Virus record (IMG/VR): IMGVR_UViG_3300050120_000105
Span: 1 to 60,317 of that record
Source: a virus
Lineage: Duplodnaviria > Caudoviricetes
Direction: 5' to 3' (one strand)
Length of the DNA: 60,317 bases
Shown here: positions 11,915-51,045 of the stretch, one piece after another
How positions within the stretch are numbered: position 1 is the first letter of the stretch
Layout: every line of letters begins with the position of its first letter
Translations under genes and position numbers: made by a program
Notes under the pieces: generated by a model
The model's input: only the letters and a program-made list of their open reading frames with translations
Databases searched by the model: none
What the model was told of the DNA's origin: nothing

Positions 11915-12558
11915 CCCGGAACCCGATAATCAAGCACCCGGAGCCGGTACGGGATCTCCTGCCAGCCCCGGTTCCCACCGGTGGCGTTCCAGGCCATCAA
12001 CTGACCATTCACGACCCGTGACACGATCGCGACGTGTCCCCCGCCCCGGCGTGAGGATACGATCACGGCGCCGGGTACAGGTCCGCCGGCCGACCTTCCC
12101 CAGTGCAGATAGGAAAGGGCCGCCGCAGATCCGGTGCCCCGGATGCCCCGTTCTGCCAACGCCGAGCCTACATTTAGGGCGCAGGCCAGTCTTCCTGCGA
12201 TATAGCGAGCCGGCCGTCCGATGGCGGAATCGAACGACCCGTAGGATACCGTTTGCCGGGCCACGGTTGGCCGCGTAGCCGTCCAACTACGCGGCGCGAA
12301 GCCGCTACTGCGCGACGCGAAGCCGCTATGCGCAGCGCCGTGCGTAGCGCTGTGGCTTCTGCCGGTATATCTTGCGGGCTGCTGCTGGGACGCTCCGAAC
12401 AGGCAAAACAGGTCGGCGCAGGCCGGTTGCGCAACGCGCTGATAGTGACGGTGATGATGGTGGTGATACGTATAATGCTGGTGATGCCGGTGCCGGGCTT
12501 CTGCCGGCGAAAGCAGGCATAGCGATGCGCATACTGCCAAGAGCAGATATTTCAGCAT
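11911..12558 (-). CDS. Secreted CHAP/NlpC-like (TIGR02594-type) amidase with His-rich N-terminus
   Basis: ACALNV, ALSYLHWG, PGAVIV, GGGHVAIV Cys-His motif; carries 66-bp nested element in frame. Confidence 0.7.
   Translation of the reverse strand: MLKYLLLAVCASLCLLSPAEARHRHHQHYTYHHHHHRHYQRVAQPACADLFCLFGASQQQPARYTGRSHSATHGAAHSGFASRSSGFAPRSWTATRPTVARQTVSYGSFDSAIGRPARYIAGRLACALNVGSALAERGIRGTGSAAALSYLHWGRSAGGPVPGAVIVSSRRGGGHVAIVSRVVNGQLMAWNATGGNRGWQEIPYRLRVLDYRVPG
12287..12352 (+). mobile_element. 33-bp palindromic mini-element, two nested copies (inner copy 12308-12340)
   Basis: CTACGCGGCGCGAAGCCGCTA[CTGCGCGACGCGAAGCCGCTATGCGCAGCGCCG]TGCGTAGCGCTG. Confidence 0.85.
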
Positions 12559-12608
12559 GTCGATTTCCTTAAAATGGTGCCGGGCGGTACAGCGCCCGGT
12601 CTTTGTCG

Positions 12609-12929
12609 TCAGGCGGCCGGCGGGGGAATCGGAACGCCAGTTGCTGCGGTGAACGCGGTATGCATCGCCGTAGTCGCGTCAGTGATTTGCTGGGTCAGCG
12701 CGACAATCGCTGGATTCTGGTTGGATTGAGCATTGATCTGCGCCACGAGCGCAGCGATGTCGGAAGTGCCTTCCTGTATAAACGCGGCAACAGACGTTTT
12801 CAGGTCATCGATGGCAGCCATGATATTTTTCTCCATGAGGGCGAGCTGATTTTCGATAGCATCAAGGCGGCGCACGACCTCGGAAACCGCATCGATGTAA
12901 GGATGATGATGGATGTGCAGAGTCACCAT
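12609..12929 (-). CDS. hypothetical coiled-coil protein
   Basis: Helical composition, lysis-region position. Confidence 0.65.
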   Translation of the reverse strand: MVTLHIHHHPYIDAVSEVVRRLDAIENQLALMEKNIMAAIDDLKTSVAAFIQEGTSDIAALVAQINAQSNQNPAIVALTQQITDATTAMHTAFTAATGVPIPPPAA

Positions 12930-13102
12930 ATTCAGTTATTTTCCGTAGATGGTTCCAAAGATGATGCATAATGCGACTACGACCAGTGTGCCGATGAGAA
13001 TGACAACGCTCGCTTTGCGTTCATGCATGTCAGCAATCCTTGCAGATGCTCTCTGGCGCGGGAGGATAAGGCCGCAGCGGATCGATCTGAGACTGATGCG
13101 GC

Positions 13103-13351
13103 CTAACGCTGGTAGCCTGTGGGAAAGTAGAGCGGGCCACCCCCAATGCCCACGACTGAGAGAATCCATGCCACGATAGCGATGACGATCAGCAGGCCTA
13201 CGAAGATCTGCCCCCATTTGTAAACGTTGGCATCGATCGACCATCCAAGAAAGCTCGTGATCAGCCACACGATCGCATAGGCAACTATGCAAACGCCGGC
13301 GATATAGAGCAGCAGATATAGAAAACTGAGTAGAACGCCGCCGAGTGCCAT
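13103..13351 (-). CDS. Small 2-TM membrane protein (holin-like)
   Basis: AAGGAG RBS; two hydrophobic helices. Confidence 0.7.
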   Translation of the reverse strand: MALGGVLLSFLYLLLYIAGVCIVAYAIVWLITSFLGWSIDANVYKWGQIFVGLLIVIAIVAWILSVVGIGGGPLYFPTGYQR

Positions 13352-13484
13352 TGCATTTCTCCTTAGATCATCGCCTCAAACCAAAGATAAAACAGGTACA
13401 GCGTGACGCTCAGATACCCGAGCCAGAAGCATGAGCATGTGATGTATTCGTTTGCTGTCGTCGGTCGGTCAATGCGCATTTCGC

Positions 13485-13685
13485 TCATCCTTTGATGTGC
13501 GGGAATGCAGGCTCGATCGATATCCAGTAGTATTGGCCGTCTACCCAATCGAGGCGGTCCTTGAGCAGATTGAAAATCGCGGTCTCGTCCTGCGACGGCG
13601 GCCCGTTTTCCTTGGTCAGAAAAACCTGGACGATGCCATCGAGCCCGCGAACGCGGTCGCAGCGAAATTTCAGGAGGGGATGCAT
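13485..13685 (-). CDS. hypothetical protein
   Basis: Follows 13688 stop directly. Confidence 0.5.
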   Translation of the reverse strand: MHPLLKFRCDRVRGLDGIVQVFLTKENGPPSQDETAIFNLLKDRLDWVDGQYYWISIEPAFPHIKG

Positions 13686-13687
13686 GG

Positions 13688-33840: not shown

Positions 33841-35100
33841 CTACAAGCTGTCCAGCGTGGCGACGGCCCATTCGCCTCTTGGCCAAAAATACCCGAAAAG
33901 TACGTCGACACGGTCGACGGCCTGGTCGGTCCCCGACTCATAGACCACCAACGACCGCAGCGAACATCGATCGAACTCATGGCGTGCCGCTTCGACCACG
34001 CCCCTGCCATTGGAGGGCATCCACAACGGGGCAATCACCAGCGACACCGCCTCGCGCTGGAACGCGATCGATTGCCGATAGGTCACGCTGGCATTGGCGA
34101 ATGGTGTGATAACCGCGTTATTCGCAGGCGATGCCGTCACCGTCATGTAGGCCTGCGCGGTATAGGGCAGTCCCGCGTAGGGAACGCTGGATGCCGGCGG
34201 AATCAGCGCCGGATAGATCGGGATCGAGGTCGCCCCGCTAAGCACGTTCGCCGTGACGGTGAACTGGCGTGCGAGACCGGTTGACGCAAACGTGGTGCGG
34301 TTGACGGCGAGAACGCCGGCCACGGTGATGATGTCACCCTGGTTCAGCGTGCCAGACAACGCCGAGGTCGTGATCGCGGTGCCGGTCTGGTTGGCGCCGC
34401 TGACGGTCGCGGTGGTAGCCGATCCCGTCGTATGCTTGATCACCGTCTGGTCCCGGAACATGTCGAAACCGAGCGCGTTTTTCATCGTTCCGGTCATGTA
34501 CTGGCTGGAAATGCGCGTTGCCGGGTTGAACTGCCCAGCGAGTGAAGACACCAACTTGGCATCGGTATGCGGATCATTGGCGAGCTTGCGCGCATCCATC
34601 GTTCCGAGATCGGGCGCCGAGTTGTCGTCGAGCAGCGCACCGGCATTCAGAACCGGGGCCTGGTTGATGGCGAGGATGTTGTTGTTGGCATCGACATTGG
34701 CGGTCGCGTTGCAGATGGCACCCTGAGATGAGAACATCAGGGTCTGGGCGACGTTGCCGGCGAGCTTGTTCATGCGCGGCATGATGAAGCGTTCGCTGTA
34801 GTCCTCGATCGAAAGCGTGCGCTCAGCCGTGGTAAAGGCAATGTCGATGTGGCGCTGGGTTGCGACTGTCAGCACCACCTGTTGCTCGATGGTATCCTGC
34901 AGCGACAATGCCGGGCCGTCGCTCGGCGCATAGTCGTTCGGAATACGAACGCGCAGCTGGGCGCCAATCTTGGCGCCTTCCTGGCCGAAGCGGTCATCGT
35001 AATCGCGATTGACCGACATCATGAACATGTTGGAGTTGAGAAAAAGCGGGACGGAATACCGAGTGATCATGCTCGGCGTAAGCAGGTTATTGCCGGCCAT
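33841..35100 (-). CDS. Major capsid protein (P22 coat/gp5 family)
   Basis: NNLLT, VNRDYD, KIGAQLRVRIP, GDIITVAGV, RVDVLFG. Confidence 0.92.
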   Translation of the reverse strand: MAGNNLLTPSMITRYSVPLFLNSNMFMMSVNRDYDDRFGQEGAKIGAQLRVRIPNDYAPSDGPALSLQDTIEQQVVLTVATQRHIDIAFTTAERTLSIEDYSERFIMPRMNKLAGNVAQTLMFSSQGAICNATANVDANNNILAINQAPVLNAGALLDDNSAPDLGTMDARKLANDPHTDAKLVSSLAGQFNPATRISSQYMTGTMKNALGFDMFRDQTVIKHTTGSATTATVSGANQTGTAITTSALSGTLNQGDIITVAGVLAVNRTTFASTGLARQFTVTANVLSGATSIPIYPALIPPASSVPYAGLPYTAQAYMTVTASPANNAVITPFANASVTYRQSIAFQREAVSLVIAPLWMPSNGRGVVEAARHEFDRCSLRSLVVYESGTDQAVDRVDVLFGYFWPRGEWAVATLDSL

Positions 35101-35397
35101 CGGGTTGGCTCCAAAGATTAGGCGGCGCCACCTCTAAGGGCGCACGGATGAAGGGGGATGCGACACGAACGGTCGCGGTGTCTCTCGCAAGCCCGATTGC
35201 GAGAAAAACGGAAGTGGCGGGACGGAAAACCCGGTTCTCGATATCCGGTTCGGATCGGTGATCATCGTAGCGGCGCGCAGTCACCGCATTATCAGACCTG
35301 CGAAGCTCGCAATAACGCTTGCGAGAAAGAGCGGGTTTCTTGAACCTTGCACCGCGTCGCTGTAGTCGCGGAATTTACCAGCGCGTGCCTCCGTTGA

Positions 35398-35430
35398 CTG
35401 CGCGACGCGAAGCCGCTTTGCGCAGCGCCG
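35398..35430 (+). mobile_element. 33-bp palindromic mini-element copy in capsid leader
   Basis: CTGCGCGACGCGAAGCCGCTTTGCGCAGCGCCG. Confidence 0.85.
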
Positions 35431-35452
35431 TCGACGGAGTTTATAGACTTTT

Positions 35453-35677
35453 CTAGAGTTGCTTCTTGATCGCGATCTCAACGCAGCGCATATGGCGGCC
35501 GAACGAATCCGGCATGATCGCCCATGTGACCTCGTAACCCTCGATGCGCGCCTTCGACATTATGACGCAAATTTGGTCGAGCAGCGGACCTATCTCGGCA
35601 CGTAATTCAGCGGCGATCACTGCATCGGTACGGATCGGCTGGACGTTTCCAGTGTCGTCATCGACGGCTTTCAGCAT
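35453..35677 (-). CDS. hypothetical protein
   Basis: Starts immediately after scaffold stop. Confidence 0.55.
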   Translation of the reverse strand: MLKAVDDDTGNVQPIRTDAVIAAELRAEIGPLLDQICVIMSKARIEGYEVTWAIMPDSFGRHMRCVEIAIKKQL

Positions 35678-37310: not shown

Positions 37311-39478
37311 TGCACGCTCTCATCCTGCGAAATATCCGCAGCGTTCGCCTGCTCGATCACATTGAAAATGTGCTGATTGGCCTGCGTACGCACTTCATGC
37401 TCGGCGCGCTGCTGGCTCAGCACATGTTCGACCGCGGCTTCGATGATCACCTTCATGCGACCCGTTTCGGCATCGAATGACTTGACGTCGTTGCGCTCGT
37501 CGCGACCGCGGACCTTCAGCTTTTCCTCGGCCAGCTTCATCATCAGTTCCGAATTCAGCTGCTGGCCTTCGACGATCTGCTGCTGAAGCGCCGCCAGGTT
37601 CGGATCTTGCCCGTCATCAAACAGCCATGGGCTGGTGTGCTTAATCCATTTCTGGACCCGTTCGGCCATCTCCTGGGCGCCGGCGAAGTCGCCGTTCTTG
37701 AGCGCCAGATCGCCCATGATCGCGGTCAGTTCCTTATTCTGGGCGATGATCTGCGTCATCGCGTCCCACGCCTGCTGGCGTTGGGTCGCGTAGTTCGGGC
37801 CGGGATCGGAGAGCACTTCGTATTCGCCTACGAGCGGGTTGAAGATGATCTCTTCGGCGGTATCTTCTTCCTTCTTGATGCGCTGGAAGGCTTCCTTGGC
37901 ATCTGGATCGATGGTGATGATTTTCTTCGAAAGGTCTTCGCCCTCGACGTGCAGGATGCGCTTGGTGTCATAGAGCTTGGGATAGATTCCGATCAGTTGC
38001 TTGGCGAGATACCGGTACATGTCGTACTGGTGCTCGGTGAAATGATAGGTCGCGATGTTGCCGGTGCGCTGGCGGGCGTTGATGGTCTTGTCCGATTCCA
38101 CCCCACGCGGATTCTCCTGCCCTTGGCTGGCCTGCCACTGGCCCGTGACCATCATGGCCCAGCGCTCGGCGTCCTGCATGCCCTGCATGAAGACGGGCGC
38201 GATCTGGGGTGGTTCTACGCGGGTCGGTGCCGTGACCGGCCGGCCCTCTTCGCCTTCCTCCTGGGCCCAATCTTCGAACGCCAGATAGGCATAATCCTCG
38301 ACGTTGGCGTTCGCCCATTCCTTCTCGTTGGTCTCGAAAGCGCGCAACGGACCGACCCATGGCGTCTTGGTCTGCAGCGCACCGAACTGCGCCGAGCCGG
38401 AGGCGTTGTAGTTGAGCAATTGCTGCGGCGACAGCTGGGCGCGCGTATGGCCCTTGCAGTCCATCTGGCCGTTGATGACGGTTTTCAGCCCATAGCAGGG
38501 AACGATCGGGATATACTCGCCGATCCAGCGCGTTTCCGGCTTGTCGCCACGCTTCAGGATGCAATCGCCGCCGATCAGATACCAGTTGACGCTTTGGGTG
38601 ATGACGTCGCGGTATTTGCCCTCGATCTCGCCGCTGTCGATCTTATCGATCGTCATGTCGACGAGTTCTGTGCCCGAATCGGCCTCCATCTCCGAGCGAT
38701 GGCCGCGAAACTCGCTACCGTCCGGCATTTTGAACCAAATCAGTTCGTCGTTCTTGTCCTCGCGCTCGTAATACATCGCCACCAGCACATGCTTATCACC
38801 AAGCCAGAGCGCATCCATGCCGAGCGTCGAGGTGCCGATCTTATTCCTATATTTGCGATGCTCGCGGTTGAAACGGTCGCGCGCCATCTTGTCGAAAACG
38901 AAGCCGAATTGCGCATCACTTGGATCCCCATCCATGAAGACCTCGGGATCGAGGTATACGGTGCGGGGGTCTTTTGCGCCTTTGATATAGACGTCCTGAT
39001 CGAACGACTTGTCATTTACGAAAGCTGTTTCCAGAATCAGGTAGCCGAAACCTCCATCGACCTGATTGGTGATCGCGTTTCGGTAACAGACCGTCGCAGT
39101 CGAAATATATTCGGTGCGCTCGACCAGCATTTGCATGCCTTCGGCCGCATCCGCTGTTGCCTTGCCGCCGGTCGCCCGAACTCGCGGCGACGCCTTGTTC
39201 ATCATCGATTCGTTGATGACCAGGCGATTGTGCGGCTCGATAATATTGATGGTCAGGCACGGTTTGCGCTTGTTGGTGCGGTCTGCGAAGATCTTGTCGT
39301 CCCAGCCATATTGATTGCGGTCGTCCTGGTAGGCGCATTTGGTGTCTTCGAGACTATATCCATACGCTTTGTCGTAAAACTCCTTGCAGCGCAGGAAGCG
39401 TTGCCGGGCGCGGTGAACGATCCGCGCATCGCCGGTCAGTGTCGGATCGTCATCGCCGCCATCGGCCGGATAGGCCAT
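37307..39478 (-). CDS. Portal protein (P22 gp1 family)
   Basis: KPCLTIN, GGFGY, YIPIVP, PQQLLNY, GPNYATQRQ. Confidence 0.92.
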   Translation of the reverse strand: MAYPADGGDDDPTLTGDARIVHRARQRFLRCKEFYDKAYGYSLEDTKCAYQDDRNQYGWDDKIFADRTNKRKPCLTINIIEPHNRLVINESMMNKASPRVRATGGKATADAAEGMQMLVERTEYISTATVCYRNAITNQVDGGFGYLILETAFVNDKSFDQDVYIKGAKDPRTVYLDPEVFMDGDPSDAQFGFVFDKMARDRFNREHRKYRNKIGTSTLGMDALWLGDKHVLVAMYYEREDKNDELIWFKMPDGSEFRGHRSEMEADSGTELVDMTIDKIDSGEIEGKYRDVITQSVNWYLIGGDCILKRGDKPETRWIGEYIPIVPCYGLKTVINGQMDCKGHTRAQLSPQQLLNYNASGSAQFGALQTKTPWVGPLRAFETNEKEWANANVEDYAYLAFEDWAQEEGEEGRPVTAPTRVEPPQIAPVFMQGMQDAERWAMMVTGQWQASQGQENPRGVESDKTINARQRTGNIATYHFTEHQYDMYRYLAKQLIGIYPKLYDTKRILHVEGEDLSKKIITIDPDAKEAFQRIKKEEDTAEEIIFNPLVGEYEVLSDPGPNYATQRQQAWDAMTQIIAQNKELTAIMGDLALKNGDFAGAQEMAERVQKWIKHTSPWLFDDGQDPNLAALQQQIVEGQQLNSELMMKLAEEKLKVRGRDERNDVKSFDAETGRMKVIIEAAVEHVLSQQRAEHEVRTQANQHIFNVIEQANAADISQDESVQ

Positions 39479-40857
39479 TAGCTCGCCATCCAGCCGTGGC
39501 CGTTGCGATCATCCAGCGTCGGCAGTTGCGTGCGCGGCAGCGGCTTCTTTTCCACGATTTTCTTTGTAATCATCGGAAATAGTTCCGTCAGAGCCCAAAC
39601 CAGCGCATCGACGCGATCCGGCGACATTTCCCCGACCATGCCGTTGGGGCCGAAATTGACCATCTCGTCCTCCAGCGCGGCAAAGGTTCCGACGTGACTG
39701 ATGCGACCCTGCGTATAGAGCGCTGCGATCGGTTCGGCCCGGGTCCATTTTCCTTTGGATGCGTGAACCTCCTTGAATGGAACGGTCGGTCGCACCGCCC
39801 GCACCGTGGCCGCGACCATATCACCGCCATTGTTAACTTCGCCGACGATGCAATTGCCGTCGTAACGATCGAAACAGGCCACCGCCATACGAGCCCAGCC
39901 ATTGGGGCTTTCCCGACAGGTTGCATCATCAAGGATGTAGCCGCGGTTATCCTCGCCAACGCCTGCCACGATGATGCCTGTCGCCGCGCCGTCTTCCGGC
40001 ATGTCGTTCTTTTTGGCCGCCGGATCGATCGCAACCACTACGCGCTTCATGATCGGAAGAGGTTTCGGATGTTTGTGACGATCGCGATCTAGATCCGCCC
40101 GTGTCCAGAGCGCATCCGGCACATCGTCGAGGATTTCGGCGGATAGCTCCTGACGGCCGAGCCTTGTTCCTGCATATTTATCAGTGATCGATTTGATGAA
40201 CGACGCCGCGAGATTGGCTTCGTTGTCCGTTGTGACACCGCGCGAAACCAGCGTGGTCGACGCCGCCAGTATCTCCTTCAGGATTGGGATCGGCCGCGGC
40301 GTGGTGGTGACGATCTGCCGCGGATGCTGTCCCAGGCGAAGGCCGAACTGCAACTGGTCCCATGTCTCGCGAGCATACCTGAATTTCGCTAATTCATCAC
40401 ACCAGGCTGCATCGAACTGCGGCCCGCGTAGCTGATCCGGTTCTGTCGCATTGTAGCCGGTGGCGATGGCTCCGGTATGAAACTCAATCCGGATCGGCTT
40501 CTTGGTGATCCTGGGCTTCTGATGCGGCGGAAAGACCGAGAGCAAACCACTCTGGCCGAACACCATAACCTCTTCCAGATCCTTTTGTGTCTCGGCAATC
40601 AGCGCAATACGTGTCGCGCGTTTCGCCGTGACTTCAGCCCGTACCCACTCCGCTCCGCATCGGGTCTTGCCGAAACCACGTCCCGCCAATACCAGCCAGG
40701 TCAGCCAATCGCCTTCGGGTGGCAACTGGTTCGGGCGAGCCCATGCGCGCCAGTTCCAATCGAGACCTTTCAGGTCTTCCGCCAGAATCTCATCAAGTTC
40801 TTTGCGCGCATGCTGTCCCAGCGAGGCGATGAAGGCTTCCACCTCGCCGAGATTCAT
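39478..40857 (-). CDS. terL: Terminase large subunit
   Basis: AGRGFGKT Walker A, LRGPQF..WCDE, TTTP, VAIDPA, SPDRVDA. Confidence 0.95.
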   Translation of the reverse strand: MNLGEVEAFIASLGQHARKELDEILAEDLKGLDWNWRAWARPNQLPPEGDWLTWLVLAGRGFGKTRCGAEWVRAEVTAKRATRIALIAETQKDLEEVMVFGQSGLLSVFPPHQKPRITKKPIRIEFHTGAIATGYNATEPDQLRGPQFDAAWCDELAKFRYARETWDQLQFGLRLGQHPRQIVTTTPRPIPILKEILAASTTLVSRGVTTDNEANLAASFIKSITDKYAGTRLGRQELSAEILDDVPDALWTRADLDRDRHKHPKPLPIMKRVVVAIDPAAKKNDMPEDGAATGIIVAGVGEDNRGYILDDATCRESPNGWARMAVACFDRYDGNCIVGEVNNGGDMVAATVRAVRPTVPFKEVHASKGKWTRAEPIAALYTQGRISHVGTFAALEDEMVNFGPNGMVGEMSPDRVDALVWALTELFPMITKKIVEKKPLPRTQLPTLDDRNGHGWMAS

Positions 40858-40858
40858 A

Positions 40859-41527
40859 TCAGAGCACGCGATACCACACTTTACTGGCTGTGGTGTAGAG
40901 CCAGCAATTCGATGACAGTGTGACAGTGCTCGCCGTACCCGCCGCAGTCGCAACAGGTAGCGAGGTGACCGCAGTGCCGACGATGGTCTGCCCGGTGGTT
41001 CCAACCACGATCGAAGTTGTGGTCAGGACGCCAGTTCCCGCATCGGTCAGACAGAACTTCTGATTCTGCATCGGATTTGGCGGCAACGTGAGGCTGGAAT
41101 AGGTTGCCGTGCCAGCACCAGCATAGATAAAGTTGGAGATACCATCAGCAACCACAACCGCAGCAGTCGTGCCCGTGGTGGTGGCAACGGTCGTTCCGCC
41201 GTAGCCCGTCCCAAGTAAGGTAGAGGGAAGAGTAACCGTCTGCGGATTGACGCCGCTGCCCGGCACCGTATCCATCGGGATCAGTTCGTTGCCGGTCAGC
41301 GTTGGAGGGCCGGCCGGAACGGTCTGGGCGCAAACCCCACTGGCACCGGTGCCCTGACCCTGGCCGGTGGCGCCGCCAAGCGGCGTGCCTGCACCGGTGA
41401 CCGTCGATGCGCAGAACGATGCACCACCGACGATCGGGTAGGTCGAATAATTGCCGGCGCCGTATGCGATCGCCGAACTTACCAAAAGAGCAGCCAAGGC
41501 TACGGCTGCGCGAGTGCGCGTCAACAT
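40859..41527 (-). CDS. Secreted Thr/Gly-rich putative structural protein
   Basis: AGGAG RBS; signal peptide; Cys pairs. Confidence 0.7.
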   Translation of the reverse strand: MLTRTRAAVALAALLVSSAIAYGAGNYSTYPIVGGASFCASTVTGAGTPLGGATGQGQGTGASGVCAQTVPAGPPTLTGNELIPMDTVPGSGVNPQTVTLPSTLLGTGYGGTTVATTTGTTAAVVVADGISNFIYAGAGTATYSSLTLPPNPMQNQKFCLTDAGTGVLTTTSIVVGTTGQTIVGTAVTSLPVATAAGTASTVTLSSNCWLYTTASKVWYRVL

Positions 41528-42949: not shown

Positions 42950-43105
42950 GAAAAGGGATTCCTATGGGATTCTATCGTTGTTCCCCAAAAACGGGCCGCT
43001 CGCGGGAGGGGGCATGTAACGAGCGGCCCTAAGTCTTGGGAGGAAACGCCCCTGAAGGGAGGCGAGCGACCACGATGGGGACCATGAGCGCCTATCTATA
43101 GACAG

Positions 43106-43144
43106 CAAAAACCCCGCGCGGGCGGGGCTTTCGGGGGTTTTTTG
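43106..43144 (-). terminator. Intrinsic terminator in late-operon leader
   Basis: Minus strand AAGCCCCGC-CCGC-GCGGGGTTTTT, with an alternative pairing partner AAAAACCCC upstream. Confidence 0.65.
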
Positions 43145-43291
43145 TGCAGCCTGCCGTGATGGCGCGCGCCCGCTCAACTACTGCGGCCCTACTCCCCTTC
43201 GGTTGGAATCCCTCTCGGTAGCAAATCTCTCGATTTGCCTGCGCAGGAGCCTCTTTGCCCCTCGCCGAACCGTTGTTACACCGTGACGGTG

Positions 43292-43864
43292 CTATACCGC
43301 TTCGACCTGATCCTCGGATAAATCCAACGGGACCATGCGCCCTAAGAGGTTCACAAGAGCGGTGAGTCGCCGCTTGTTGTCAAGCGAGGCGATGTGAGCC
43401 GTCCACATATCGAACGAGTGGCCCTTGATCCGGACCTCCTGGCCGACATAGAACGCCCGCTTGCGCTGGCCCGGCGGGACGTCGAGCAGCATCTCGAATT
43501 TACGGATTTCGCCCAGCATTTTGGGCCGAACGATGACCGGGGCGCTTTCCTGCCTGACATAGCCGATGATGTCGTCGCTGATCTTCTTCAGGCGCGTCAG
43601 ATCGGCTTCGAAATCCGGGATCAGGATCAGGCCAGAAAAGATCGCCACGGTGCGTTCGCGATAGCGGTTCCAGCCCGTTTTGCGGCTGATCTTCTCCTTC
43701 GGCAGGTAGTTGTCGACGCCGCGCTCGGTCAATTTGGCCTCGACAGCCAGTTCCCGGTTCGGACGCACGCGAAGCAGGTAGTGGTGCTTTGGGACAGGGC
43801 GAACGATGCAGGATGGCGGTTCCATGAATTCGATGAAATCCCCGATATGGTAGAGCGCTGTCAT
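43292..43864 (-). CDS. NusG-paralog antiterminator (NGN + KOW)
   Basis: YLLRVRPNRE, YLPKE, IFSGLI, FYVGQEVRIK..F, VNLLGRMVP. Confidence 0.85.
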   Translation of the reverse strand: MTALYHIGDFIEFMEPPSCIVRPVPKHHYLLRVRPNRELAVEAKLTERGVDNYLPKEKISRKTGWNRYRERTVAIFSGLILIPDFEADLTRLKKISDDIIGYVRQESAPVIVRPKMLGEIRKFEMLLDVPPGQRKRAFYVGQEVRIKGHSFDMWTAHIASLDNKRRLTALVNLLGRMVPLDLSEDQVEAV

Positions 43865-43878
43865 GTTCGGTTGCCCTT

Positions 43879-43911
43879 CTACGCGGCGCGAAGCCGCTAT
43901 GCGTAGCGCTG
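43879..43911 (+). mobile_element. 33-bp palindromic mini-element copy (intergenic)
   Basis: CTACGCGGCGCGAAGCCGCTATGCGTAGCGCTG. Confidence 0.85.
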
Positions 43912-43919
43912 TGGGTGAT

Positions 43920-45089
43920 CTACTTGAAGTCGGCCATGTCCTGTTCGGTCGGTTCGGGTTGTGGCGGGCCGGTGGTGTAGATTTTGCCCTCGACCGACGG
44001 GGGCCACGGCCAGGGGGCGCGAAAGCCAACAGCTAGGGCCGGGCGGGCCCCGAAGACGCTCGCGTTCAAAAGTTCGGTCCAAGCAGCCACCTGCCGATAA
44101 TCCTCAATCGCGACCCATTTCGAGCTGTCGGCGGCGCCCGCAAAGGCTAGGATTTGAGGGGTGATCTCGCCAGGGTAGGTAATTCTGCCCTTGTGTTCGA
44201 AGGGGCGCGCGCGGGTGACGGCGTACAGCGTCGAGATCGCTTTGCCCTCGGGGCTATCGGCCAAAATTCCAGTCACGCCGCCATGCCGCTGCGTTGGATC
44301 CCGCTTGGCAAATTCAGCCCAGGCCGCGGTTTCCTTCAGGAACAGATGCGCGCCGAGCACATTGGGCGGTTTGCGCTGCGCCTTGCGATAGGCGACGTAG
44401 CCGCGGGCGGCCGACCGGGCGAGGTTTTGTTCCTCGGGCTTGAGCGCCGACCAGACTTGCTGCGCCAACGATTGTCGCAGTATCGGCTCTTGCCAGTCTT
44501 TTTCGAAATCCTTCCAACTTTCATCGATCTCGACCGACCCCCCGGAGGGGGGCTGGGGGGATTCTTCAGGTTCAGGTTCAGAAGTTAGGCCACGTACGCA
44601 GTTAGGTGGCTGCTGGGGGGCTAAGTGGGGGGCTAACTGTTCTTCATCCTCAGAATTTGCAACTTTCCTAGGAGAGGGGCTAATTTCAACGCTTTCGGAA
44701 TTAGAATTTCCTTCTACGGCTTCGACTTTGCCTTCTGCGGCGGCCTCGATCACCTCGGGATCGGCGTCGATCATCAGCCGGATTTCGTCGGTCGTGCGAC
44801 GCCCGCGGCCATCTGCATTGCGGCGCCCGTTTTCATCCAGCCATTGAGGCATCCGGACAACGGCCCCGATGCTTTCCAGCCATATCAGCCGGCGCCGGAC
44901 GGTCTCTGGCGCGAATTCGGTATCCTCGGCGAGCTGCGCGAGACTGACGAAACACATACCTTCGCCGTTGACGTAGAGCGTCAGCGTTGAAAGCACGAGC
45001 TTGGCGTAGGGATTGCGCAGCCGAAGGTTACGAGCCCAGGCATGGGCCTCGTCTGCGGCGATACGGCGTTTGCGGCGGGGATTGGTCAA
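43920..45089 (-). CDS. Replication initiator (N-terminal wHTH)
   Basis: AKLVLSTL, CFVSLAQLAEDTE..ETVRRRL..LE; EPEPEE linker. Confidence 0.75.
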   Translation of the reverse strand: MTNPRRKRRIAADEAHAWARNLRLRNPYAKLVLSTLTLYVNGEGMCFVSLAQLAEDTEFAPETVRRRLIWLESIGAVVRMPQWLDENGRRNADGRGRRTTDEIRLMIDADPEVIEAAAEGKVEAVEGNSNSESVEISPSPRKVANSEDEEQLAPHLAPQQPPNCVRGLTSEPEPEESPQPPSGGSVEIDESWKDFEKDWQEPILRQSLAQQVWSALKPEEQNLARSAARGYVAYRKAQRKPPNVLGAHLFLKETAAWAEFAKRDPTQRHGGVTGILADSPEGKAISTLYAVTRARPFEHKGRITYPGEITPQILAFAGAADSSKWVAIEDYRQVAAWTELLNASVFGARPALAVGFRAPWPWPPSVEGKIYTTGPPQPEPTEQDMADFK

Positions 45090-45322
45090 AGCGGATAGTT
45101 CCTCGCGTTATAAGCTACCGCTCGCGCCTGGCCGCTGATACACGGCGGCGTCCCCTCGCCCTCGATCCGGTCCAGGTCGCGCCAGAACTCGACCCAATGC
45201 ACATCGCGCGGTCCGTCCGCTTCATGCCGCGTCACCTTGACGACGCCGCAGCCGTTCTGGCATTCGCGCTCGGTCTTGTGGGGCGAGATGACGTTGCCGT
45301 CTTTGGGCCAGCGGTGTTTCAT
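45086..45322 (-). CDS. small Cys-containing protein, paralog of 45319..45588
   Basis: TERECQNGCGVVKVTRH. Confidence 0.65.
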   Translation of the reverse strand: MKHRWPKDGNVISPHKTERECQNGCGVVKVTRHEADGPRDVHWVEFWRDLDRIEGEGTPPCISGQARAVAYNARNYPL

Positions 45323-45588
45323 GTCTTGCTTCCCGCCCCGACCGGCACGCACGCCGGCGCATCGAACGTCTCGACCTGCACCGCATCCGCCGATCGCCGC
45401 CAGGCCCTTCCGCCGCCGCCTTTCGGATGCAGCGTGACCTTGACCGCGCCGCAGACCTTGCAGGTGCGCTCGGTTTGCGGATAGCCGGAGGCGGACCTTG
45501 CCGCCGGCACCCATACCGGAGACTCGAAGGTGTGCTTCAAGGCCGGCATGTGGAGGACGTAGCCTTCGGGGATGGTGTTCATGTTCAT
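45319..45588 (-). CDS. small Cys-containing protein
   Basis: TERTCKVCGAVKVTLH. Confidence 0.65.
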   Translation of the reverse strand: MNMNTIPEGYVLHMPALKHTFESPVWVPAARSASGYPQTERTCKVCGAVKVTLHPKGGGGRAWRRSADAVQVETFDAPACVPVGAGSKT

Positions 45589-45597
45589 TTGGTTTCG

Positions 45598-46333
45598 GGA
45601 TAGTTCAACTTTGATTCCTCGTTATTAGCATCGGCGGTGTCGGCTAAGTTCCGGATGTTTCGGCTTCGACCTTCGCTTTCGGCTCGGACCGCATGCGTTT
45701 CGCCGCCGCCGCCTCTTCAGCGCGATCGGCTGCGCTCTTGACATGCGACTTGCGGATGCCGTCGATGTCTTCAGTCGGGAAGCGTCCAGTATCGTCGAAG
45801 TCTTCACGCTTGATCGGCTTGATCGTTGGGGCGGGCTCGTCGACTTCCTCCGCAACCGGATTGCCGTCAGTGTCGCGATAGACGCGAACCGGCAAGCCTC
45901 CGAGTTTGAGCACGATCTCGCCATGCGGCGGAACGATGCTTTTGAGAAATTCGACAGCCTCTTCGCGCGCGGCGAGATCGACGGCGAACTTGCCGAGCGC
46001 CATGAACAGCGGCGGTTCTTCGGCCATGCCGATCGCGTGCATATAGGTATCGAGCAGCGCTTCGGCCTGTTGGCGCTTGGCGGGATCTTCCGCACGAAGC
46101 GCGATCAGTTTTCGAATTGTCTTGGTATCGAAGCCGAGGGCCTTGCCGCGCTGGAAGATTTCCTTTTGTTGTTCGCTCAGTTGCTTCTTGCGGTCGATGA
46201 CGCCCTCGATCTCTTCGATCAGGCCGCGCAATTCCTTGCCGCTCTTGGTGCCCTTGCCGATGCTCATAACTTCATCCTTCAGAACTTAGCCGCTGCATTA
46301 CCGTTTCGTCGTGACGCTAAAGTTGTACTGTCC
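45598..46333 (-). mobile_element. Inverted-repeat cassette A (ends 45598-45651 and 46282-46333); cargo GapR-like gene
   Basis: GGATAGTTCAACTT..GGCTAAGTTC / GAACTTAGCC..AAGTTGTACTGTCC. Confidence 0.8.
45644..46267 (-). CDS. GapR/DUF2312-family nucleoid-associated protein with C-terminal extension
   Basis: LRGLIEEIE, KEIF..GK..GFDTKTIRKLIALR, LLDTYMHAIGM. Confidence 0.85.
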   Translation of the reverse strand: MSIGKGTKSGKELRGLIEEIEGVIDRKKQLSEQQKEIFQRGKALGFDTKTIRKLIALRAEDPAKRQQAEALLDTYMHAIGMAEEPPLFMALGKFAVDLAAREEAVEFLKSIVPPHGEIVLKLGGLPVRVYRDTDGNPVAEEVDEPAPTIKPIKREDFDDTGRFPTEDIDGIRKSHVKSAADRAEEAAAAKRMRSEPKAKVEAETSGT

Positions 46334-46344
46334 ATATCTGTCTC

Positions 46345-46563
46345 CTACCGCGGCACGATCTTGTATCCAGCCTGATGCAGCCCATCCAACACAGCCCGCA
46401 CTGGAATGCTGCTTTCGCTTAGCAATCGTCCCGACCAACGATAAGGCACCATCGACAGCGCACACGCGATCACTTCATCCGGATCAAGCAACGGCCCGGC
46501 GCGAGGCTTGCGGGCTTCGAGCGGCATGCGGTCGATGCTGACGGGGAGCGTGGAGGGTTTCAT
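46345..46563 (-). CDS. hypothetical protein
   Basis: Coupled; ends AGYKIVPR. Confidence 0.55.
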   Translation of the reverse strand: MKPSTLPVSIDRMPLEARKPRAGPLLDPDEVIACALSMVPYRWSGRLLSESSIPVRAVLDGLHQAGYKIVPR

Positions 46564-46871
46564 TCGGCGGGCTCCAGCAGATCAGCCATCCCTAGCGATT
46601 CCCGCTTCCGCTGCTTGATGCCACGCCGTCGTATCGGCGCGTCGTATTGATTGTGGCAGCGCTGGCACCACGCACGCAGGTTTTCATCCGAACAATTCTC
46701 GGGGACGTGATCGAGATGCGCGACCGTCAGCACAATCTTTGAACCGTCGCGGATGCTGTAATTCTGGGCTCCGCAATCCTCGCATTTGTTGCCCGCGCGC
46801 GCCCGAATTCGCAGACTGATTTGCTTCCAGTCTTTCGGGTATCGATCCTTATTTTCGGGGCGAATGGGCAT
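46560..46871 (-). CDS. HNH-like endonuclease domain protein
   Basis: CEDCG, VLTVAHLDH.PENC, NL.AWCQRCHN. Confidence 0.8.
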   Translation of the reverse strand: MPIRPENKDRYPKDWKQISLRIRARAGNKCEDCGAQNYSIRDGSKIVLTVAHLDHVPENCSDENLRAWCQRCHNQYDAPIRRRGIKQRKRESLGMADLLEPAE

Positions 46872-47332
46872 TATACAGCCACTCCCGCGCGCATCTTGTC
46901 GAGCGCAGATCGCCCCGGCATAGGATCGCCGAAAAATCCTCCAGTCAGCCCGCGCTCACGGATGCGGTCGCGAAGCTCCTGGTCGAACACCAGCTTCGAT
47001 TTTGGCGTGAGCGCGATATGGCCGGCATAGTCGATCGTGACCGGACACGGCTTTCCCGGCAGCGGCGCCGGTTTCGGCTTTCGCCTGGGGAGATCCTCGA
47101 ATTCGATCATCAGCGCCACTTCGGCCTTGATGGCGAGCCGTCGCGCCTTGCGTTCGTCGACCCGGCGCTGGGTGCGGACTTCCGACATCATCGACTGGCA
47201 GGTCGAGCGCGGATGGCCGACCTTGCTCACGATATCGTCCCACGGGACGCGGCGACCTTCCAGCGAACAGGTGTCCACGGTGTCGGTCATGTATTTGAGC
47301 TGTTCCGCCGTCCATCGGTTTTCGTAACGCAT
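46871..47332 (-). CDS. hypothetical protein, N-terminal Myb/HTH-like
   Basis: RWTAEQ...W..I pattern; FFGDPMPGRSAL tail. Confidence 0.65.
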   Translation of the reverse strand: MRYENRWTAEQLKYMTDTVDTCSLEGRRVPWDDIVSKVGHPRSTCQSMMSEVRTQRRVDERKARRLAIKAEVALMIEFEDLPRRKPKPAPLPGKPCPVTIDYAGHIALTPKSKLVFDQELRDRIRERGLTGGFFGDPMPGRSALDKMRAGVAV

Positions 47333-47386
47333 TTACTTTTCCTTCCCTGTTATTTCGTTACGATCACCGTGCCCGGCGAAGCCTCT

Positions 47387-47419
47387 CTACGCGGCGCGAA
47401 GCCGCTATGCGTAGCGCTG
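47387..47419 (+). mobile_element. 33-bp palindromic mini-element copy that truncates a gene
   Basis: Exact copy; supplies the TAG at 47405-47407. Confidence 0.85.
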
Positions 47420-47704
47420 TGGCGAAGACGGGTCGCGCAGCGCCATCGCGGCGCCATCGACCAGAAAATTCGCCAGTTGGTCTTTTGTGATTTCGAATTC
47501 GAAAAACACGCCGCCAGCCGATTGAACCTTGACCACGAAGGTATTGCGCAGCGGCTCGGTCAGGTAGAACAGCTTTGCCTTCGGGTAGGCGTAAGGCTCA
47601 CGCGGCGCGTGGGCGTTGGTGAGGATGGTCTTATTTGGACAGTTCAACTTTGATTCCTCGTTATGAGCAGCGGCGGTGTCGGCTAAGTTCTTCGTGCCGG
47701 TCAC
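47405..47704 (-). CDS. hypothetical protein altered at both ends by insertions
   Basis: N-terminus reads through the cassette-B end; C-terminus cut by the 33-bp element. Confidence 0.55.
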   Translation of the reverse strand: MTGTKNLADTAAAHNEESKLNCPNKTILTNAHAPREPYAYPKAKLFYLTEPLRNTFVVKVQSAGGVFFEFEITKDQLANFLVDGAAMALRDPSSPQRYA

Positions 47705-48508
47705 AGTTCAAGTGCCTCTTGCTTTGCGGGCTTCGGCGGTTCGATGAACAAGTCAGGTCGCGCCAGCGCGTCGGTGATGCGGCGGCAGGCGATGTCGAAA
47801 TACTTGGGCTCAATCTCGATGCCGATGAACTTTCGGCCGAGCTTGACGGCGGCAACGCCGGTTGTGCCGGATCCCATGAAGGGGTCGAGGATGGTTTCGC
47901 CGGCATCGGAAAAAAGTTCTATCCACTCTCCGATAAGTTCGACCGGCTTTTGTGTGGGATGTTCGCCACGCGGTGACGGATAGGACCAGACAGCGCGCGA
48001 TCCTCCACCGTTCCAGCGTTTTGTTTCGTCTGCTCTATGGAAAATCGCAACGGCTTCCCATCCCGTCGCAGGCCTGTCGCCAGTAAACTGCGGCGCTCCG
48101 TTCGGCTTAACCCAAATTCCAAATCTCACCAGGGGAAGCCCGCTCGCCTCAGCGACTCCGATATGCCGCCAGTCGCATGTTAGGATGACCCACCTCCGCG
48201 CGATCGAAATCATCAACTCACACAATGTCAGAAAGTCTTCGCGGCTTAAGGATTCGAAATGGATACTGGCGACATTGTCCGCACCGCCGTTTTTTCCGAT
48301 ACGAGTTCGCGCGCCCGCATGAGTAACGGCGTCATAAGGCGGATCAGTCACCACGGCATCGACCTTGCCCAGTGTCGGCAGAATCTCCCGGCAGTCGCCG
48401 AGATAAAGCGTCACGCCTTCCGCCAGATGTTCGACACGATTCATTTTCTGCCTTCAGAACTTAGCCGCTGCCTTACCGTTTCGTCGTGACGCTAAAGTTG
48501 TACTATCC
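47637..48508 (-). mobile_element. Inverted-repeat cassette B (ends 47637-47690 and 48457-48508); cargo DNA methylase
   Basis: Both ends ~95% identical to the corresponding ends of cassette A. Confidence 0.8.
47701..48444 (-). CDS. N4/N6 DNA methyltransferase (beta class)
   Basis: VTDPPY, HPTQKP, LDPFMGSGTT. Confidence 0.92.
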   Translation of the reverse strand: MNRVEHLAEGVTLYLGDCREILPTLGKVDAVVTDPPYDAVTHAGARTRIGKNGGADNVASIHFESLSREDFLTLCELMISIARRWVILTCDWRHIGVAEASGLPLVRFGIWVKPNGAPQFTGDRPATGWEAVAIFHRADETKRWNGGGSRAVWSYPSPRGEHPTQKPVELIGEWIELFSDAGETILDPFMGSGTTGVAAVKLGRKFIGIEIEPKYFDIACRRITDALARPDLFIEPPKPAKQEALEL

Positions 48509-48530
48509 ATATCCAACCTAACGGCGAGCA

Positions 48531-48755
48531 TCATTGCGGCCTCCGCATCTTGCAATCGCATAGCCATTCCATGTGGACGACGTACTGATCATGATGCGGC
48601 ATCTGGACTCGCGGCCGAAGGATGATCCAGCCGAGGCGCAGCCAATCCAGGGCCTGCCAGCGCGGCACGTAATGGATGATGCGGTCCTTCACCGAACGAA
48701 CTCTGCTGATGGCGAAATCTCTCGCGCATGTGCGTAGCTTTTTGCGGGAAGCCAT
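48531..48755 (-). CDS. hypothetical protein (start uncertain)
   Basis: ORF in operon. Confidence 0.45.
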   Translation of the reverse strand: MASRKKLRTCARDFAISRVRSVKDRIIHYVPRWQALDWLRLGWIILRPRVQMPHHDQYVVHMEWLCDCKMRRPQ

Positions 48756-48886
48756 TTATTGGACCGATTGAGCGGAATATGCCGCGAAGGTGCGCGCGGT
48801 CGCGATTTGGCGAATGTCGCTTCCGGCCAGCCCTTGATCCGATCGGCGTTGCGTCGCGCTCCGCGATATTCTGATGCGTGTTTCAT
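48689..48886 (-). CDS. hypothetical basic protein
   Basis: ATGA coupling. Confidence 0.45.
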   Translation of the reverse strand: MKHASEYRGARRNADRIKGWPEATFAKSRPRAPSRHIPLNRSNKWLPAKSYAHAREISPSAEFVR

Positions 48887-50010
48887 GCCGCTTCGTCCTC
48901 TGCGTTTGGCTGTGCCTTGCGCACGGGACTCGCCGTGAACCGGATCGCGTCGTCAGGCTTGGAAAGGGCTTCGCGGCAGCCAGGCGGTATCCAGAACGGC
49001 GCCAGTGGCTGGGCTCCCTTCAACCAGACCAGCCACATGTACGCGGTTGCGGTAGATCCCTCCGGGTCCCATCGCCCCTTGCAGAGATTGACGCGCTCGG
49101 CAAAGAACGCGATCAGCGTCGGCGGTGTGTCCTTGAAGATGCGTTCATAGCGACCGATCGAATCGAGCCATTGCACGCGCATGAACATCGCAATGCCGGT
49201 GCCGACCAGATCGAGCGCTTTCAGCACAAAGGCCTCGCCGAGATCGCCGAAGGGCGGGTTGGTGATGATCCAGTCCGCGCCTCGGAGTATTTCGGGACCG
49301 AGGAAGTCGACAACGCGGTCGCCATAACCATAATCGTGAATGTCGGAGGCGATCACCGAGCGGAAATATTCCCGCAACACTTCGGCCATGTGGCCATCGC
49401 CGCATGCCGGTTCCCACGCGTGCTGCCATTTGCAATGGCCGCGACGTTCGAGGTGCGGGAAAACATGTTCGATCAGCGCGCGCGTAGCCCAGGGCGGCGT
49501 CGGGAAGTGGTCTAGGCTGTCGTCGGGTTCCTGCCGTGAGCCCATGACGGCGCGGGCACTGTTGATGGCGGCCTCGCCGATCCGCATCAGATCCATGGTG
49601 ACGCGGGTCTGGCCGGCTTCCATTTCGTCGCGCCACGCGCCGACGCGCGCCTCAAACTCTGCCGGGGGCACCGCAGCCATCTTTTGGGCATGAGCCGAAA
49701 ACTTATGAGAGACGCCGATATCCTCCAGTTTGATCGGAGAAACCCCTTCCGGTTCGGCAGTGGTTTTGGCTGGAGGGCGGCCGCCCTTATGGAGCCCAAT
49801 GGTCTCTTTTTGCGCGGCAATCATCTGGCCGAATCGGCGCTCGGCGTGAAAACGAATCTCGGCGGCGTCGATTTCGAGGCTACGATCACCGGCGCGCCGA
49901 GCGTATTCCTTCATCGCCACGGCCTTGTCGAGGATCGACTTGACGTCGTCGACGGCCTTGGCCTCGGCGAGCATGATGCGGGCTTGATCGTAGGGGACGA
50001 GATCCGTCAT
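48883..50010 (-). CDS. Adenine-type DNA methyltransferase with N-terminal helical/HTH domain
   Basis: DHFPTPPWAT, WEPACGDGHM, IITNPPF. Confidence 0.85.
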   Translation of the reverse strand: MTDLVPYDQARIMLAEAKAVDDVKSILDKAVAMKEYARRAGDRSLEIDAAEIRFHAERRFGQMIAAQKETIGLHKGGRPPAKTTAEPEGVSPIKLEDIGVSHKFSAHAQKMAAVPPAEFEARVGAWRDEMEAGQTRVTMDLMRIGEAAINSARAVMGSRQEPDDSLDHFPTPPWATRALIEHVFPHLERRGHCKWQHAWEPACGDGHMAEVLREYFRSVIASDIHDYGYGDRVVDFLGPEILRGADWIITNPPFGDLGEAFVLKALDLVGTGIAMFMRVQWLDSIGRYERIFKDTPPTLIAFFAERVNLCKGRWDPEGSTATAYMWLVWLKGAQPLAPFWIPPGCREALSKPDDAIRFTASPVRKAQPNAEDEAA

Positions 50011-50036
50011 CTAGCGAACCTCGCGACAGGTCATTT

Positions 50037-50420
50037 TCAGCCGGGAGGCAGCGCCTCCCGATAGATTTCCTTGCCGGGCACCAAATCCCAGATGTTCCGG
50101 CAGAATGGTTCGCCGTGCGTCATGTCCATCAACCACTTCATGGTGACGCCACGATCCCAAAACCACTCGCCGCGCAGATGGCCTTCGCGCAATTGCTGAT
50201 GCACCAGCGGTTCGACATCCGGCGGAGCCGCGACGACCCCAATAAGTTCGAGTTTCCGCGCGCTGCCAACTTGGAGATCGGAAAGCCGGTGCCAATGGTC
50301 GCGTGAGTATCCGACCTTGATCGCGTCGGCCTCCGCATCGCGGATGAAGTAAACTGAGCCGAGTTCGGTTTCCGCGATCCAGAATTCTCGCAGAGAGACC
50401 AATCGAGTACGCAGGAACAT
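50037..50420 (-). CDS. GIY-YIG-like (T5orf172/Mug113) domain protein
   Basis: VYFI, IKVGYS, RLSDLQ, E..VH, GEWF. Confidence 0.75.
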   Translation of the reverse strand: MFLRTRLVSLREFWIAETELGSVYFIRDAEADAIKVGYSRDHWHRLSDLQVGSARKLELIGVVAAPPDVEPLVHQQLREGHLRGEWFWDRGVTMKWLMDMTHGEPFCRNIWDLVPGKEIYREALPPG

Positions 50421-50742
50421 AACACCCTCGCTGGCTGGCGATACAATCTAAGCGTTTAGCACAGAATGCGGCGATCTTCATGATTAAGGTTGCACTCATA
50501 GGTTTGCACTCGCTCGGGATAAGAACCGTTCGACGACGCACGCAAAACTCATTTACCGGGGACGCAACACAACGCGCAGAAACCGCTCAAAAAAAGCAGT
50601 CAGAAAGGACGTGAGGACCTTCGAAACCGGACGACGTTGGTCGCTTCGGACCGGCGATCGGCCCTGGTGCGCAGCACGTAGCGCAGCGCAAAGTAGGCGA
50701 TGGCGAGGATGGTGAAGGCGGCATAGCCGTAAAGGATCGTGG

Positions 50743-51045
50743 TCATGCGGCCTCCGCGAAACGCTCTGAGGCTTCAAGAATCGACTGGATCAAGCGCCAG
50801 CCGCTTTCAGATGGTCTAAAGAACGGCCCGCGCGGAGATTCTCCGGGCACTTTCCTGTTCCAGATTTCGATCAGTTCACGCCGCCACAGCGGCACCACTG
50901 CGCGGCGCGAAGCCGCTATGCGCAGCGCCGTTGCCTCTCGCTGATCGCGAGTCAGGGTAATCTGACCGCCATTGGAGCAGCAGATCGCGAGATGTTTCAA
51001 TGTCGCGATCTGCCGGTTTGAGAGACGTTCGCCTTTCACAGGCAT
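50743..51045 (-). CDS. hypothetical protein with in-frame 33-bp element
   Basis: Contains TALRIAASRRAV derived from the element. Confidence 0.65.
   Translation of the reverse strand: MPVKGERLSNRQIATLKHLAICCSNGGQITLTRDQREATALRIAASRRAVVPLWRRELIEIWNRKVPGESPRGPFFRPSESGWRLIQSILEASERFAEAA
50898..50930 (+). mobile_element. 33-bp palindromic mini-element copy (in-frame insertion)
   Basis: CTGCGCGGCGCGAAGCCGCTATGCGCAGCGCCG. Confidence 0.85.

Follow-up and report, generated by a model that had tools for sequence, protein, structure and literature searches.

In the account given in PMC3733652, the super-families of repetitive extragenic palindromes (REPs) have as their defining feature an unpaired GTAG or CGTC motif 5' of the stem, and the CGTC REPs include two of the Rickettsia palindromic elements (RPEs), RPE-4 and RPE-6; the spread of such REP-like hairpin repeats is described as still poorly understood (PMC8266576). 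[quoted passage not shown] Here we describe a 33-bp GC-rich quasi-palindrome, called the 33-mer below, in a phage genome (Duplodnaviria; Caudoviricetes) deposited as the IMG/VR virus record IMGVR_UViG_3300050120_000105. The record is rated complete (CheckV completeness 100%), and its 60,317 bases are the window to which all positions refer. The 33-mer, present as five intact copies and one split copy, all on the + strand, is non-autonomous mobile DNA that recently entered this phage lineage and inserted at least six times, each time with exact 33-bp ends and in one orientation.

The pattern CTRCGCGRCGCGAAGCCGCTWTGCGYAGCGCYG has exact matches at 12308, 35398, 43879, 47387 and 50898, five in the forward and none in the reverse direction, and it matches none of 100 dinucleotide-shuffled sequences. 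The sixth copy is split, its positions 1-21 lying at 12287-12307 and its positions 22-33 at 12341-12352, with the 12308 copy between them, so that the six same-orientation copies reported by the initial annotation are all accounted for. When the genome was scanned at up to 10 mismatches, no further copies and no partial or variable-length ones were found; the only other matches, at 7-9 mismatches, were those that a quasi-palindrome makes with its own reverse strand. The copies fall into two types. The three CTAC-type copies (12287, 43879 and 47387) are identical, and the three CTGC-type copies (12308, 35398 and 50898) differ among themselves solely at positions 8 (A/G) and 21 (A/T), a uniformity that speaks for their recency.

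Regarding the structure of the element, the two types differ jointly at positions 3, 26 and 32. Positions 3 and 26 pair with each other in an outer stem (1-6/23-28), and this pairing is kept in both types, as the initial annotation had noted when it described a covarying outer stem; the third change, which it did not stress, lies in an unpaired 5-nt tail that reads CGCYG on the + strand and CRGCG on the minus strand. On the minus strand, the layout is that of a tag followed by a hairpin, like that of REPs. Several pairings compete within the 33 bases: besides the outer stem there is one further in (5-9/15-19) and one that is shifted (3-6/28-31). The element ends match as terminal inverted repeats at just 4-5 of 6 positions. 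The core heptamer GCGAAGC, which can form its mini-hairpin on the + strand only, had been singled out as an ultra-stable structure, and the high stability of this mini-hairpin in DNA is indeed documented (Tm 76.5 C; PMC13037366); a special role for it in this genome did not find the same backing, and the bare heptamer occurs 24 times against 21 expected and is not enriched. A search of Rfam returned no family for the element, and there is no T-run after the hairpins at any of its copies.

That the 33-mer is a recent insertion element follows from element-free sequences at four of its five loci, in agreement with the tiny strand-specific mobile element proposed at the outset. At 50898, all four homologous IMG/VR contigs (L009-L012), whose proteins are 61-74% identical to that of the window, show a clean 33-column gap at the DNA level, with flanks that continue across the gap and no duplicated base; the open reading frame (ORF) at this locus, 50743-51045, is therefore not one whose homologs all contain the 33 bp, an outcome that would have spoken against mobility. 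At 35398, the element is absent from all 10 of the relatives with alignable upstream sequence (among 12 relatives of the capsid gene), and two of these 10, L038 and L039, retain the exact 18-base palindromic target with its halves adjacent, which in the window are the two arms, 35389-35397 and 35431-35439, of an older hairpin (35389-35439, + strand) split by the element. At 47387, a 151-base contig of metagenome run X2 joins 47386 to 47420, skipping exactly 33 bases; this evidence is genuine but thin, being a single contig at 2.9x depth with five other differences, and the main contigs of runs X1-X3, at 16-26x depth, have the element. These three runs are peat metagenomes and a possible source of the record, and they were compared as assembled contigs, not as raw reads, so that a lack of variants there at the other loci carries no weight. 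Finally, at 12287-12352 the window protein alone has 22 extra residues, which are absent from all 12 of the aligned homologs, drawn from 120 listed of 353 hits. The three loci with uninterrupted sites at the DNA level (50898, 35398 and 47387) have no duplicated base, so the absence of a target duplication, also claimed by the initial annotation, is upheld. For the fifth locus, 43879, searches with ORF 43920-45089 and with the NusG-like ORF gave no relative and hence no element-free sequence; a locus search for relatives of the CHAP-like ORF (below) found none, nor did a megablast of 43000-51500 find any near relative among GenBank phages.

Three other candidates were examined and set aside. 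L023, the only relative of ORF 47405-47704 (47% identity), was considered as an uninterrupted 47387 site and rejected, as it ends six residues past the last conserved block. An assembly artefact is ruled out, since the same copies were assembled in three runs, with contigs breaking there as expected of repeats, and a TA-duplicating insertion of the Tc1/IS630 type is ruled out because TA is not present on both sides.

All element loci are overlain by minus-strand genes, as first reported, and what the insertions do to these genes differs from locus to locus. The nested pair consists of a CTGC-type copy (12308-12340, an exact pattern match) placed between positions 21 and 22 of a CTAC-type copy (12287-12307 and 12341-12352, the latter piece recognized by reading the sequence and by repeat-family search) that is otherwise the same as those at 43879 and 47387; one insertion thus landed in the hairpin of an older copy. 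The 66 bp add 22 residues to a low-complexity linker in the product of the minus-strand gene 11911-12558, a secreted CHAP-like peptidase (its Pfam CHAP match, at E 6e-4, falls short of the curated cut-off). Likewise, the CTGC-type copy at 50898-50930, an exact match, adds 11 residues in frame to the 100-residue protein encoded on the minus strand at 50743-51045, for which no PHROG family was matched; the initial annotation had read in-frame additions, of 11 residues per 33 bp, in both ORFs. Two copies are intergenic: the CTGC-type copy at 35398-35430 (A at position 8, T at position 21) lies 22 nt past the stop of ORF 35453-35677, where the element and the hairpin that it splits (35385-35443) together fold into an RNA of unusual stability (z -3.7), and the CTAC-type copy at 43879-43911 lies between ORF 43920-45089, whose stop is 8 nt away, and the minus-strand NusG-like gene, identified by family search, whose ATG (43864) follows after 14 nt. 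The last, a CTAC-type exact match at 47387-47419, sits at the 3' end of the minus-strand ORF 47405-47704, which it truncates by supplying the last four codons and a TAG stop; the element-free ORF would continue for another 17 codons, up to a TAA that abuts the next ATG. In place of these 17 it now has four new codons, and its earlier stop-start overlap with the gene that follows has disappeared. The insertions survive where they are tolerated, that is, after stops (35398 and 43879), in a dispensable C-terminal tail (47387), in an in-frame linker (11911-12558), or in frame within 50743-51045. Translation does not explain the orientation bias, because the element read in reverse, on the + strand, has all three frames open, whereas on the mRNA (minus) strand two are open and the third has a TAG.

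The six target sites share a position within small hairpins. On the + strand the cut always precedes a T and follows an A at four of the six sites and a T at the other two (W|T); on the minus strand it falls after an A at every site, and after CA at four. The minus-strand 5' flanks are GCCA, CCCA, GCCA, CGCA, TCGA and GCAA, with only the last A constant, and although the sites are few, all three CTAC-type copies come after CCA, with the CTGC-type copies after GCA, CGA and CAA. Short GC-rich palindromes flank the cut and place it in their loop or at their dyad centre, and the hairpin of the element itself is shaped alike. A Watson-Crick stem of at least 3 bp surrounds the cut at 5 of the 6 sites, against ~21% of positions genome-wide, and when G.T pairs are allowed on the + strand, the stems reach 9 bp at 35398 and 8 bp at 43879, stems of at least 8 bp being found at 0.7% of positions genome-wide, figures that are indicative only because the statistic was devised after the sites had been viewed. 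This hairpin-loop rule also holds for the nested insertion, which lies within the hairpin of the older copy itself. Any microhomology of the flanks with the element ends is limited to a single base, and the flanks of different loci have no homology to each other.

Outside this phage, the element is almost absent from the collections searched. Related phages, scanned over 227,065 bases at up to 9 mismatches, have no copy, the records of the four relatives have none either, and no other palindromic indels of 18-70 bp were seen among the relatives. Two exact-pattern scans of IMG/VR gave no copy, although these scans may not show records of this genome itself or of one very close to it; the second, which used a looser 16-base core, returned 55 stretches, all of them chance coding matches, the best at 26 of 33 positions with 16 of these forced. 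An exact-pattern search of a genome collection of 185,579 species gave no real copy (its three matches are chance ones inside genes), and blastn of the 33-mer against plasmids and GenBank phages gave weak hits only, at E 0.02 or worse. A hit in a Bradyrhizobium phage (H30) was inspected and is unrelated sequence. Thus the scans of genomes, viruses, plasmids and phages yielded chance matches only, and the element has no GTAG or CGTC layout, which tells against the possibility, left open by the initial annotation, that it is an already catalogued repeat.

The metagenome search gave eight matches, seven of them chance matches within genes and one real. The real one, on contig L030, agrees with 31 of the 33 pattern positions and is the sole match outside the phage; it lies in a REP-rich intergenic tail (2470-2719) in which a GTAG-type REP is followed by a CGTC-type REP, which has a CCA tail, and directly after these by the element-like 33-mer, the REP types being those of PMC3733652. 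This alphaproteobacterial contig encodes GDPD, RidA and EipB-like proteins and has DNA similarity to Methylobacterium and Rhizobium records. It ends 10 bases after the copy; those 10 bases repeat GCGCGGC, which may be the start of a tandem second copy.

The genome in which these copies lie has a 134-base direct terminal repeat (1-134 and 60184-60317, 98% identity), even though the record is classed as linear without end repeats. A 52,580-base contig, present in two metagenome runs, extends from the 33.5-43.9 kb region across the record ends to 51.6-52.5 kb; as this join is seen in both runs, the genome (~60.2 kb) is either circular or circularly permuted. The minus strand carries most genes between ~3.4 and 53 kb, and the cumulative GC skew peaks near 20-22 kb and has its minimum near 54-56 kb. 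Family searches identified the large terminase (39478-41004), a GapR-like gene, three DNA methyltransferases and one exonuclease; ORF 33841-35100 is taken to be the major capsid gene, judged by its position and conservation. No tyrosine or serine integrase or recombinase was found in the phage, which is probably non-integrating. Its host is probably an alphaproteobacterium of the Bradyrhizobium family, to judge from the CHAP-like protein, whose homologs are labelled Bradyrhizobium sp. and Tardiphaga sp., from the GapR-like gene, and from a match to the Rfam family suhB/mmgR (RF00519) at 42979-43067 on the minus strand (43.1 bits, gathering score 41). This last match places a host-type small RNA family in a phage, between the small-terminase-like and NusG-like genes.

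Several other features of the genome deserve mention. Three HNH genes and one T5orf172/GIY-YIG-like gene occur together in this one 60-kb phage, two of them within ~1 kb of element copies: an HNH_3 plus zf-His_Me_endon protein of the nicking, I-HmuI-like HNH_3 type (51910-52539), an HNH protein (46560-46871), an HNH/DUF968 protein (56627-57094) and a MUG113/T5orf172 protein (50037-50420). A second repeat family, of 55-70 nt, has seven copies in both orientations, three on the + strand (45598-45651, 47637-47690 and 57089-57142) and four on the minus strand (46271-46338, 48446-48513, 56580-56647 and 57411-57478), with conserved ends, TGGAyAGTwCAACTT and CGGCTAAGTTC, and ~29 nt between them. These copies lie just upstream of genes (GapR-like, methyltransferase, HNH), and inverted pairs of them stand on either side of the GapR, methyltransferase and HNH genes; a role as phage promoters, as operators or as borders of cassettes is possible. 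A long noncoding leader of ~290 nt (35100-35390, minus strand) that precedes the capsid gene is conserved in blocks in L033-L041 and L043, which suggests a structured RNA or a regulatory region. Finally, within ORF 51036-51761 a run of 12- and 18-base GCCGGAGCCGTAGCC-type repeats (51363-51584) encodes a Gly/Ser/Asp/Tyr-rich stretch whose length varies among relatives by indels of 18-60 bases.

As to how the 33-mer moves, we tentatively favour, with a little less than even confidence, a REP/RPE-like non-autonomous hairpin whose single-stranded form is mobilized by an HUH-type nick-and-join enzyme supplied in trans. Under such a mechanism, the element and its targets would both be handled as folded single-stranded DNA, the single strands being exposed by replication or by transcription of the long minus-strand gene arm, and the enzyme would be of the kind that acts in REP/RAYT and IS200/IS605 systems. 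The short unpaired tag beside the hairpin foot would help to select the cut, much as the REP tetranucleotide 5' of the hairpin is described as taking part in the choice of cleavage site, as in IS608 (PMC8266576). In the 33-mer, the 5-nt tail CRGCG of the minus strand would occupy the tag position, and it is this tail that holds the third type-distinguishing base (position 32). The enzyme would most likely come from the host, since the phage has no recognizable HUH gene. Exposure of one strand by rolling-circle replication or by transcription would fit the single orientation of the copies.

A number of observations weigh against this mechanism. No match to the HUH families Y1_Tnp (PF01797), Phage_GPA, Y2_Tnp (PF04986) or Helitron_like_N (PF14214) was obtained in six-frame searches of the phage, so that the HUH link suggested by the initial annotation found no counterpart, Y1 or Y2, in this genome. 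Pfam and PHROGs searches of ~47 phage ORFs likewise gave no transposase, HUH lead or recombinase, and neither did sequence searches of the PDB with three unknown ORFs together with two Atlas look-ups, in which no transposase, HUH fold lead or recombinase appeared. The exact-pattern scan of the genome collection gave no real copy, which leaves a copy-rich host hypothetical. A conserved target tetranucleotide, as in IS200/IS605, is absent; the layout of these elements also fits poorly because 33 bases cannot hold two subterminal hairpins; and REPs have GTAG or CGTC at the tag position, whereas the 33-mer has CRGCG there, with GYAG only within the 3' arm of its stem. The 33-mer folds no better than its dinucleotide shuffles (z -0.9 to +0.3), its stem covariation amounts to two types only and may reflect a single event, and the hairpin rule for targets carries the post hoc caveat given above.

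The identity of the active strand is a further difficulty. The initial annotation held that a G-to-A change, tolerated as a G-T wobble, marks the minus strand, which is valid for only one of the several pairings; the tag-then-hairpin layout also favours the minus strand, but the + strand has in its favour the GCGAAGC mini-hairpin and G.T pairing, both that of 7.22 and that seen in two of the target hairpins. In addition, if the skew extremes mark where two-way replication ends and starts, the copies at 12.3 kb share the orientation of the rest despite being on the opposite arm, which does not fit targeting of the lagging strand in theta mode.

The absence of a transposase from the phage would suit an explanation in which its own free-standing nucleases, the three HNH and the one T5orf172/GIY-YIG-like proteins, cut or nick hairpin sites and repair then copies an existing element into the break. 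Candidates are present, two of them near copies as noted, and there is a precedent in that intron-encoded endonucleases have been proposed as helpers for the GC clusters of yeast mitochondria (PMC4478555). We nevertheless consider this route unlikely, because repair from an ectopic template needs flanking homology, of which there is none between the loci, and because it would yield neither identical 33-bp ends six times nor a single orientation; moreover, relatives with homologous regions have no element, and HNH genes are so common in phages that their presence says little. The hairpin targets could also be explained with no dedicated enzyme at all, by a polymerase that stalls at a small palindrome, copies a distant element hairpin and returns. 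Such template switching accounts for the small palindromic targets, for an inserted sequence that is itself a hairpin, for the insertion of one copy within the hairpin of another and for the lack of a target duplication, yet we regard it as quite improbable: the microhomology between flanks and element ends is at most one base, exact ends six times with no partial copies are unlike slippage, and nothing of the kind is inserted in relatives that have these hairpins too.

Insertion into palindromes that is orientation-specific and leaves no duplication is also known from IS1111-type elements and from integron attC sites, where the recombination point is G|TT. A different hairpin- or REP-targeting recombinase, either of the IS110/IS1111-type DEDD class or a tyrosine recombinase acting on folded single strands, might accordingly be envisaged, all the more so as the near-identical copy on L030 lies in a REP cluster. 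This is very improbable in our view, since 33 bases are too short for two recombination sites or a guide RNA, the phage has no tyrosine or serine recombinase, and the junctions show no G|TT attC point; an integron attC-like cassette as such is ruled out, as the junctions do not fit. Barely credible, finally, is the view that the repeats are not mobile and represent a conserved regulatory signal under selection, such as a terminator, an RNA stabilizer or a protein-binding site. Three of the five loci are at or just past ORF ends, as with REPs, and the composite hairpin at 35385-35443 is stable as RNA, but four loci have element-free counterparts, the element is absent from all relatives, two loci lie inside coding sequence with one copy inside another, and no T-run follows the hairpins. 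A secondary function may have been acquired after insertion.

The case combines six young insertions, element-free matches at four of five loci, one metagenome variant without the 47387 copy and a nested insertion, with a target rule that is visible, namely the loop of a small hairpin without duplication, in a 60-kb genome small enough for laboratory handling. A probably non-integrating phage has been colonized by a host-type mini-element, and this colonization alters proteins (by 11 and 22 residues), ends one frame early and breaks a stop-start overlap. Duplication-free elements this small may escape tools made for longer MITEs bounded by terminal inverted repeats and duplications (MITE-Tracker seeks both, in longer elements), and so may be under-counted in viral genomes. 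Going beyond the favoured mechanism, the 33-mer could be a minimal self-describing hairpin transposon, in which the hairpin and the 5-nt tag would suffice for an HUH-type or other enzyme, the type-specific tag base would re-programme the choice of target, and the phage may keep copies for their SSB-resistant GCGAAGC mini-hairpin, for example as a priming or processing signal in rolling-circle replication. This idea is rather unlikely to be right; if true, no smaller programmable mobile unit would be known, and the element would offer a tractable system for studying how REP-like repeats spread.

The 33-mer can be set beside several known systems. MITEs derived from DDE transposons have terminal inverted repeats and a target duplication, whereas the 33-mer has imperfect ends and no duplication. 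The IS91 elements and Helitrons insert between A and T without duplication and in one orientation; their termini are 5'-TC and CTRR-3', a GC-rich hairpin lies close to one of the two, and they have a Y2 Rep protein. The 33-mer shows A|T at only four of its six sites (T|T at the other two), its termini are CT... and ...CYG, and the phage has no match to PF04986 or PF14214. The GC clusters of yeast mitochondria, for example GC42, resemble it in being GC-rich hairpins of ~40 bp in a small, gene-dense genome with homing endonucleases, but GC42 is described with an AG target duplication (PMC4478555), which the 33-mer does not have, and the kind of genome is different. Elements of the IS200/IS605 family and its hairpin-only derivatives move as single strands by 'peel and paste' with a Y1 HUH enzyme. 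Like the 33-mer, they insert in one orientation and without a target duplication, and their ends are hairpins with a tag or guide position at the foot (PMC8266576). Those elements insert 3' of a conserved tetra- or pentanucleotide and have two subterminal hairpins and TnpA, unlike the 33-mer, which has no such target, one main hairpin and no Y1_Tnp in the phage.

The RPEs are similar in their effect, since they too lie in frame in coding genes and add residues (PMC3733652). Their sequence is unrelated to that of the 33-mer, RPE-1 is longer, and they occur in bacterial chromosomes, not in phages. Like the 33-mer, REPs are palindromic GC-rich hairpins, of 20-40 bp, with a short unpaired tail, and they have sub-types with complementary changes in the stem. 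REPs differ from the 33-mer in having hundreds of chromosomal copies, mainly extragenic, against six in a phage, in forming inverted pairs (REPIN-like doublets), of which the 33-mer has none, and in having a cognate RAYT (Y1 HUH) gene, PF01797 being without a match in this phage. To our knowledge, clean REP insertions with matching uninterrupted sites have rarely been documented. REP units are also described as lying close behind ORF ends, sometimes supplying a TAG stop, with occasional in-frame intragenic copies (PMC3733652), and the 33-mer does likewise. In the literature searched, which did not extend to subscription journals, we found no report of a duplication-free hairpin element of ~33 bp multiplying in a phage genome. 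Although it carries neither the GTAG nor the CGTC tag, the 33-mer works like a REP or an RPE, and it is among the smallest mobile elements to have been caught moving, of which cases in phages are rare.

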